From Promethearchaeia archaeon (lineage in GTDB: Archaea > Asgardarchaeota > Lokiarchaeia > Sigyniarchaeales > SOKP01), in NCBI GenBank assembly GCA_029856145.1, contig JAHQWK010000031.1:1-64000 (forward strand): DNA of 64,000 bases, given 5' to 3'. A program made the translations under genes and the position numbers. Positions 13,581 to 14,334 of the stretch are shown here, piece after piece (within the stretch, counting starts at the first letter, position 1; every line of letters starts with the position of its first letter). The notes below the pieces were generated by a model. The model had not been told where the DNA came from, searched no databases, and saw only the letters and a list, made by a program, of their open reading frames with translations.

Positions 13581-14000
13581 AAGCATAGCAGTTTCAGATC
13601 TCTATCTGGGAATATTACTGGTAAAAAATGAAAAAGACGGAAACCATGATACCCCGAAGGAAGATAATTCTATTATAATTTTCCATCAGTTAATGAAAAT
13701 AAAGACCATGAAGACCAAAAATTTAAGGAATTTGAAAAGATATTTTTTCCAAATGAGAATTTAAAAATTTTAAACATTTTCAAATTAAAAACATTTATCT
13801 TTTATGTAAAGAAGCTCTAATTTATTAGTCCGAAAAATAAATTTAACCCAATTTAATAAATCTATTTATTATATTGTTACTTCTATCAGAATAAGCTAAA
13901 TTTTAAGAATTTTCTACAACTATGTTTCTATACTTCAAAGTCATCTTTGTCATGTGAAAAAAAAGGAAATTCTTAAATATGAATAAATTTCAATATATAT

Positions 14001-14207
14001 TGTCAAAAAATATTTAAAAGGAACGGAACACCATGATCAAAAATATATTCTTATACCTAATGCCGTTAAATCGGCTAAATACCTCAGCGGGAAGAGATTT
14101 TTTCTTCTCGGGGCAAACCCTTAACCCTGTTATTAGATAAATACGTCTCCTCTTTTTACAATTTTGAATATCATGGTTTCCGCTTCTTTCCTACTCCTTT
14201 TTTGACA
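14001..14207 (+). ncRNA. putative structured non-coding RNA or inverted-repeat element
   Basis: Ends pair over ~45 nt (TGTCAAAAAA...CGGAACACCATGATCAAAAAT with ATTTTGAATATCATGGTTTCCG...TTTTTTGACA). Three internal hairpins. BRE/TATA-like AAAAGGAAATTCTTAAATA about 25 nt upstream. Lies between convergent genes. Confidence 0.55.
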
Positions 14208-14334
14208 TTTCGGTTTAATGACTTAACTAGATCTGTTTCATTACAGAATTTAATGAATATCACTTTTAAATCTTTTTATAAAGGCAAAAAATTCTAAATA
14301 ATAATTAAATATTTTTTTTTCTAATTTGATACCA

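Follow-up and report, generated by a model that had tools for sequence, protein, structure and literature searches.

Introduction

In Methanosarcina, the small RNAs sRNA154 and sRNA41 mask the ribosome-binding sites of several trans-encoded mRNAs by means of anti-RBS sequences (PMC5867862, PMC3510493). The published substrates of archaeal bulge-helix-bulge (BHB) splicing are tRNA, rRNA, the cbf5 mRNA and one 5' UTR, that of HVO_1309 (PMC7714728), and the tRNA introns of Asgard archaea were gained repeatedly by a route that is not known (bioRxiv 10.64898/2026.10.13.758758). In our literature searches we met neither a description of a regulatory small RNA from Asgard archaea nor a report of internal BHB introns in any small non-coding RNA apart from tRNA and rRNA.

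Here we analyze a locus in a window of 64,000 nucleotides (the whole stretch of DNA that was studied) from the genome of a Lokiarchaeia archaeon. We conclude with high confidence that positions 14001-14207 are a real, uncatalogued and family-wide non-coding RNA gene, the source copy of which carries a relaxed BHB intron. As to its function, we favor on balance a trans-acting anti-Shine-Dalgarno (anti-SD) sRNA that works like the Methanosarcina anti-RBS sRNAs.

Locus and strand of the RNA gene

The gene lies between two convergent genes, an M24 peptidase gene on the plus strand and an HDAC gene on the minus strand, in agreement with the preliminary description of this DNA. It is a single-copy gene in the source genome, a draft assembly of 32 contigs that is 97% complete. 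The neighboring genes differ among homologues, the HDAC operon being on either side or missing, and the RNA gene therefore stands alone. An Rfam search with gathering and E-value thresholds, with and without the intron, gave no match over the element, as had been expected, and no description of the RNA was found in the literature searches. The RNA belongs to no known family. Its gene, stem, promoter, strand and intron anatomy, as well as the complementary sites in mRNA leaders, were established by computation. The features are as follows.

13936..13961, plus strand: conserved operator; inverted repeat TTTKTC-N4-GAMAA at 13946-13960 with an upstream TTTTCC-like half site
13961..13979, plus strand: BRE and TATA box (TATA at 13972-13979)
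14001..14207, plus strand: predicted precursor RNA of 207 nt, 177 nt when spliced, with putative ends
14001..14010, plus strand: arm of a lineage-specific outer helix, pairing with 14198-14207
14016..14043, plus strand: 5' arm of the conserved closing stem, with 17 pairs; 90-94% of cells are paired and 15 pairs show compensatory changes
14045..14057, plus strand: core segment A (ATATTCTTATACC), near-invariant and mostly unpaired
14062..14075, plus strand: variable hairpin between two TACC copies; the sequence turns over and the fold is kept
14079..14086, plus strand: core segment B, 5' exon part (ATACCTCA), with the anti-SD motif ACCUC; invariant
14087..14116, plus strand: BHB (tRNA-type) intron of 30 nt; 10-bp inner stem, central helix ACCU/GGGC, 3-nt bulges
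14117..14137, plus strand: core segment B, 3' exon part, the proposed seed; two AACCCU repeats with a 7-nt period, invariant in 12 genera
14145..14157, plus strand: segment C with TCTCCTC, an anti-SD motif for GAGGAGA, and a U tract; conserved
14161..14191, plus strand: 3' arm of the closing stem, pairing with 14016-14043, followed by a pyrimidine/U-rich tail

The minimum free energy of 14001-14207 on the plus strand was -53.1 kcal/mol (z = -5.3), a value reached by none of 200 shuffled sequences. The minus strand folds comparably (-56.2, z = -4.1), and the strand therefore had to be decided by evidence other than folding. The conserved promoter and the BHB motifs fix it as the plus strand. 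The preliminary description had named the same strand.

Closing stem and core

The ends of the RNA had been reported to pair, and they do so in two blocks, 14001-14010 with 14198-14207 and 14016-14043 with 14161-14191. The outermost 10-bp helix is restricted to the source copy and a few close relatives, and the core of the RNA family measures about 145-150 nt, compared with the 207-nt precursor of the source genome. The closing stem covaries. Double changes were found in 18 of 20 pairs, with 90% paired; none of 500 shuffles and none of the slid controls equaled this result, and the signal collapses on sliding. The stem contains both G-U and compensatory pairs. An ATG is conserved inside its 5' arm, and the pyrimidine/U-rich tail behind its 3' arm is likely to be the terminator. 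About 400 nt upstream, at 13633-13651 on the plus strand, there is a second copy of the 5'-arm motif, with 14 nt of complementarity to the 3' arm of the RNA. It is absent in the nine relatives checked and is possibly a remnant of a duplication.

Within the stem, the C/U-rich core is almost invariant across the family and predicted to be unpaired, and it shows almost no substitutions, synonymous or otherwise. The mean unpaired probability predicted for the proposed seed is 0.86. The hairpin GCCG-TTAAAT-CGGC, reported earlier, is present at 14062-14075 and its fold is kept among relatives, with the exception of genus g19, from which the hairpin is missing. As for the possible partners of the ACCUC motif, GAGGT in the source genome has its maximum at -14 to -11 relative to start codons. 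The core also resembles U12-intron signals or the 5' end of U1, a resemblance that we take to be due to chance.

Other parts of the fold first drawn did not survive comparison. For the inner TTAT..CTAATG stem no covariation was seen; in g19 one of its arms is missing, and introns interrupt it in relatives, so that it is unsupported. The GGGAAGAGA hairpin, listed as RNA structure, is the stem of the 30-nt intron and is missing in most relatives; the GGG-GCAAA-CCC hairpin straddles an intron/exon junction and is not conserved. Much of the multibranch part is the BHB intron, which had been overlooked. Removal of the intron leaves one large open loop without a conserved apical stem, and the 6S-like stem/bubble/stem architecture that had been suggested is not borne out.

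Promoter and operator

The BRE/TATA motif noted at 13961-13979 is real, in that homologues share a TATA-like box, which in the different genera mostly lies 28-52 nt before the stem. The operator is present upstream of nearly all homologues examined. Its weight matrix found only 29 sites scoring at least 13 in the source genome, and the presence of a dedicated operator suggests that the RNA is conditionally expressed. The gene has its own promoter, is intergenic and contains no conserved ORF, as is expected for an anti-SD sRNA.

Two further groups of operator sites in the source genome are worth noting. The top-scoring sites on contig C9, at 305604 and 307791 (L165), precede a pair of GNAT-like paralogues, and a membrane-protein gene is next to each of these genes. 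Judging from these sites, the two genes likely belong to the same regulon as the RNA gene. On contig C23, near-duplicate operator-promoter-leader units at 73572 (L366) and 76285 are separated by about 2.7 kb; one is followed, after a leader of 230 nt, by the gene of a 740-aa secreted-type protein, and the other has no gene close behind it.

BHB intron

Deletion of 14087-14116 restores the invariant core, so that the insertion is precise in comparison with intronless orthologues, and most relatives have no insert. Among relatives, we found 27 inserts of 28-33 nt in 26 of about 105 genomes, at nine core sites within about 50 nt; two of these sites, A9 and A10, lie in core segment A. All 27 inserts formed a BHB motif with an inner stem and at least three central pairs on the plus strand, and 21 of them had four, compared with none on the minus strand and with a null (5000) that gave a mean of 2.4 and a maximum of 8. 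The intron of the source copy has three of four central pairs and a 10-bp inner stem. The outer exon-exon helix is 0-2 bp in nearly all inserts and 0 in the source copy. The motif is therefore a relaxed, not a canonical, BHB. The source genome encodes two EndA catalytic-domain genes, RtcB and Lsm, and two of its tRNA introns measure 29-30 nt.

A 278-nt contig from run X1 corresponds to 13969-14276 minus exactly 14087-14116, with no other difference. The run is labelled metatranscriptomic and may be DNA. Since this is so, and since the contig starts upstream of the TATA box, it represents either cDNA of the spliced RNA or, in a near-identical strain, an allele that has no intron.

It is worth noting that introns at the same site in two g20 loci (L072 and L074) share their ends with 14087-14116 across genera, and that the intron family B19 spans g1 and g20. 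Comparison of these sequences suggests either old introns with many losses or transfer.

Distribution among Asgard archaea

A covariance model detected homologues in 105 of 126 genomes, covering 12 genera of one Lokiarchaeia family, and nearly always in one copy. No homologue was detected in 24 genomes from the other families of the class, and a broader model (R2) gave nothing significant in 26 other-family genomes (best E 0.08). BLAST found a homologue in 32 of the 36 genomes of the genus. When an exact 18-nt core was searched in 185,579 species genomes, the matches were mostly in Asgard MAGs (labelled Promethearchaeota or similar), with a few bacterial chance matches. Phylum-wide motif counts beyond the family were near the control, two small families excepted, and the viral contigs searched held no homologue. 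The family-wide single-copy conservation, together with the covariation, the own promoter and the variable neighbors, supports a stand-alone plus-strand ncRNA, which had been one of several readings offered at first.

Several individual cases were observed. One genome (G093, L104:582-1209) has two tandem copies of the RNA gene, each with its own promoter, and another (G092, L082/L083) has one long-hairpin copy and one diverged paralogue with an altered seed. A contig labelled Nanopelagicaceae bacterium (L300, DATKTW010000080.1) contains a complete copy of the RNA and is probably a mislabelled or misbinned Loki contig.

Candidate target mRNAs

Complementary sites were found in the leaders of three genes. 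The V4R-domain gene (target 1) was first found in the operator scan of the source genome through the shared operator, and its leader contains a complement of the core that covers the SD. It ranks first of about 2,900 genes of the source genome for duplex formation with the seed. The Ras-like GTPase gene (target 2) has the same operator in the source genome and ranks 11 in the same scan; one of 12 shuffled seeds, however, also placed three operator genes in the top 24. Both targets were picked by their score in the source genome and the orthologues counted are not independent; with this limit, AGGGT is kept in 15 of 21 V4R orthologues despite variation in its distance from the SD, and a GGGTT doublet matching the 7-nt period of the seed is present in 16 of 24 GTPase leaders. 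The median seed duplex of the V4R leaders was better than those of all 300 shuffled seeds. The V4R site is missing from tandem paralogues and from other genera.

Target 3, found by pattern search, is a conserved hypothetical gene with a perfect 16-18-nt seed complement covering its SD. The site is perfect in three related g20 genomes, has one mismatch in a fourth and is decayed in two sister genomes. The chance expectation in the leaders of 135 family genomes is about 0.001 for an 18-nt match and about 0.05 for a 16-nt match. The gene (L458:500-946, minus strand, G075) encodes a protein of about 140 aa that is conserved in 110 of 134 family genomes and matches no Pfam family.

We computed the net binding after opening costs instead of co-folding, which cannot model pairing into a closed loop. 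The spliced and unspliced values were -15.9 and -3.2 kcal/mol for the V4R leader, -7.7 and +6.3 kcal/mol for the GTPase leader, and -28.4 and -14.0 kcal/mol for the target 3 leader. The seed is interrupted by the intron, and the net binding computed for the leaders is 13-14 kcal/mol weaker before splicing.

None of these targets is family-wide: targets 1 and 2 are limited to genus g1, and target 3 is limited to one g20 subclade. Strong duplexes across the source genome were no more frequent than with shuffled seeds, family-wide target patterns were no commoner than control patterns, and no specific target of segment C survived testing.

Other candidates were rejected. The hdrB gene has a 16-bp match in the source genome, but only its GAGGAG SD is conserved, the rest being the K/E-rich tail of the upstream gene; an apparent enrichment of Hdr/Mvh targets was dropped on the same grounds. 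Recurrent 23-24-nt bipartite sites were mostly explained by coding constraint or by antisense position to ORFs, the V4R gene excepted, and a Csl4 match is probably within coding sequence, the start behind it being mis-called.

The V4R gene of the source genome (L367, contig C23, about 14260, minus strand) seems to start, in most orthologues of the genus, at a conserved ATC or ATT codon 5 nt past a GAGGTG SD. The other orthologues start with ATG or TTG. A non-AUG start is possible in this gene.

Function and alternative explanations

We propose that an operator-controlled promoter of its own drives transcription of the RNA and that the end-to-end stem would hold open a C/U-rich loop with the anti-SD-like motifs ACCUC, two AACCCU and UCUCCUC. 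In the source genome, EndA and RtcB would first excise the seed-splitting 30-nt intron. The spliced loop could then pair with G/U-rich sites in several mRNA 5' leaders, often over the ribosome-binding site, and this pairing would most likely block translation. We infer the transcription, the splicing and pairing in the cell, the repression and any chaperone role of Lsm from the features described above. The anti-SD reading requires a conserved and accessible seed, and the seed is conserved and predicted to be accessible. Several facts weigh against this reading: no target is common to the whole family even though the core is invariant throughout it, neither the genome-wide duplexes nor the family-wide target patterns exceed their controls, the invariant seed leaves no compensatory seed-target change to compare, and any C/U-rich loop pairs trivially with SD sequences.

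The invariance of the seed throughout the family, the dedicated operator and the candidate targets named above, among them a Ras-like GTPase, make post-transcriptional control testable in archaea related to eukaryotes. With this intron, tRNA-type splicing would reach a small RNA that is neither tRNA nor rRNA. The nine independent sites of insertion within about 50 nt, and possibly a pair of near-identical sequences with and without the intron, also offer a compact system for the question of how introns arrive. Since every intron found falls in the seed, the tRNA-splicing endonuclease and RtcB might switch the sRNA on in intron-bearing lineages, although we regard such a gate as improbable. If true, splicing without a spliceosome would serve as the switch of a regulatory RNA in Asgard archaea, with a logic like that of HAC1/XBP1 activation in eukaryotes.

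There is another interpretation, in which the RNA is a protein-binding scaffold or decoy. The invariant single-stranded repeats would titrate an RNA-binding protein, a ribosome-associated factor or RNA polymerase, in a CsrB-like or 6S-like manner, and the leader motifs would be mRNA sites of that protein or chance. Four short repeats on an open loop, exactly invariant throughout the family although no mRNA target is common to all of it, are what this interpretation would predict, and a single copy with its own promoter is compatible with it. A decoy, however, would share its motif with the mRNA sites, yet the leader sites are its complement. The lack of a conserved apical stem leaves no 6S-type mimic of an open promoter, and the source genome has no TROVE/Ro60 match. 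We consider the decoy unlikely.

The tRNA-like conservation and the frequency of introns (nine sites, in 26 of about 105 genomes) would also suit a housekeeping guide or chaperone acting on a stable RNA, in rRNA processing or modification or as an aid to the splicing of mini-introns in this lineage. The longest complement to 23S rRNA and to partial 16S rRNA outside the 3' half, however, is 9 nt, within the shuffled range of 7-12, and complements to the SRP and RNase P RNAs are also at most 9 nt. No C/D or H/ACA boxes were seen, the RNase P and SRP RNAs are at other loci, and the dedicated operator suggests conditional expression. Such a housekeeping role is therefore quite improbable.

A MITE or another DNA-level element (an origin, a dif site or an operator array) with an incidental fold is very improbable. 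The source copy has TGTCA..TGACA ends and many homologues are close to contig ends, yet the TGTCA ends are not conserved and the element is single-copy in the source genome and nearly always in relatives, contrary to the MITE that had been considered. Moreover, G-U and compensatory pairs and strand-specific BHB introns imply an RNA.

The core could also be viewed as about two telomere C-strand repeat units beside a boundary hairpin, as in a telomerase-like template RNA. We take the core and the adjoining hairpin to resemble the template and boundary hairpin of ciliate telomerase RNAs. Many telomere-like repeat arrays in metagenome contigs match the complement of the core exactly, and a size of 150 nt, a closing stem and a single copy are compatible with this view. 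No RVT_1 reverse transcriptase was found, however, in the 97% complete genome (control positive), nor a tandem TTAAGGG array in the 32 contigs of the draft; the partner search by PF12009 had no positive control and is uninformative. No covarying pseudoknot was seen, the hairpin is missing in g19, and the complementary sites sit in mRNA leaders. A telomerase-like RNA is thus extremely improbable.

Equally hard to maintain is a fold-back mRNA for a 20-25-aa peptide, the type I toxin-like mRNA once suggested, since for all the conservation of the ATG in the 5' stem arm neither frame nor peptide is conserved: the ATG-to-core frame is 0/1/2 in 9/24/27 homologues and the across-hairpin frame in 36/9/15, the peptides are unrelated and some have 2-3 aa, and the core is almost without substitutions.

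RNase P and SRP RNAs, neither of which had been recognized in the element at first, were rejected on the basis of the Rfam search and of their own loci, the SRP RNA being on contig C23 and the RNase P RNA at a separate locus in 29 of 36 genus genomes. The source assembly has no RNase P match, apparently because that locus is unassembled; it also lacks most rRNA, and ARAGORN called only 19 tRNAs in it, several with implausible introns. A Y RNA was rejected as well, since the source genome has no Ro60/TROVE partner (PF05731; control positive).

Comparison with known systems

Like 6S RNA, the RNA is about 150-200 nt long, single-copy and closed by a long stem. Unlike 6S RNA, it conserves only this stem and an optional small hairpin, with no second stem beyond the bubble, and gives no Rfam match. 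With ciliate-type telomerase RNA it shares its size, the closing stem and a hairpin that precedes about two C-rich repeats of telomere-like sequence, and it differs in that no reverse transcriptase, repeat arrays or pseudoknot were found for it.

Three other systems are comparable as well. In the Cuckoo/CcsR RNAs of Alphaproteobacteria (PMC4615179, PMC8034643), repeated and unpaired C/U-rich motifs are likewise read as anti-SD. Cuckoo RNAs have CCUCCUCCC in the loops of hairpins and often occur in several copies, whereas the present RNA is single-copy with ACCUC and AACCCU in one open loop. Like sRNA154, sRNA41 and sRNA162 of Methanosarcina (PMC5867862, PMC3510493), it is a conserved intergenic archaeal sRNA. 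It differs from them in its one large stem-closed loop, a seed invariant in 12 genera, tRNA-type introns and targets that are predicted only. Compared with published archaeal BHB introns (PMC7714728), the host is a small ncRNA outside tRNA and rRNA, and the canonical outer helix is mostly reduced to 0-2 bp. In other respects the inserts are like archaeal BHB introns: they are hairpins of 28-33 nt with a 4-bp central helix and 3-nt bulges, patchily distributed and located at many positions.
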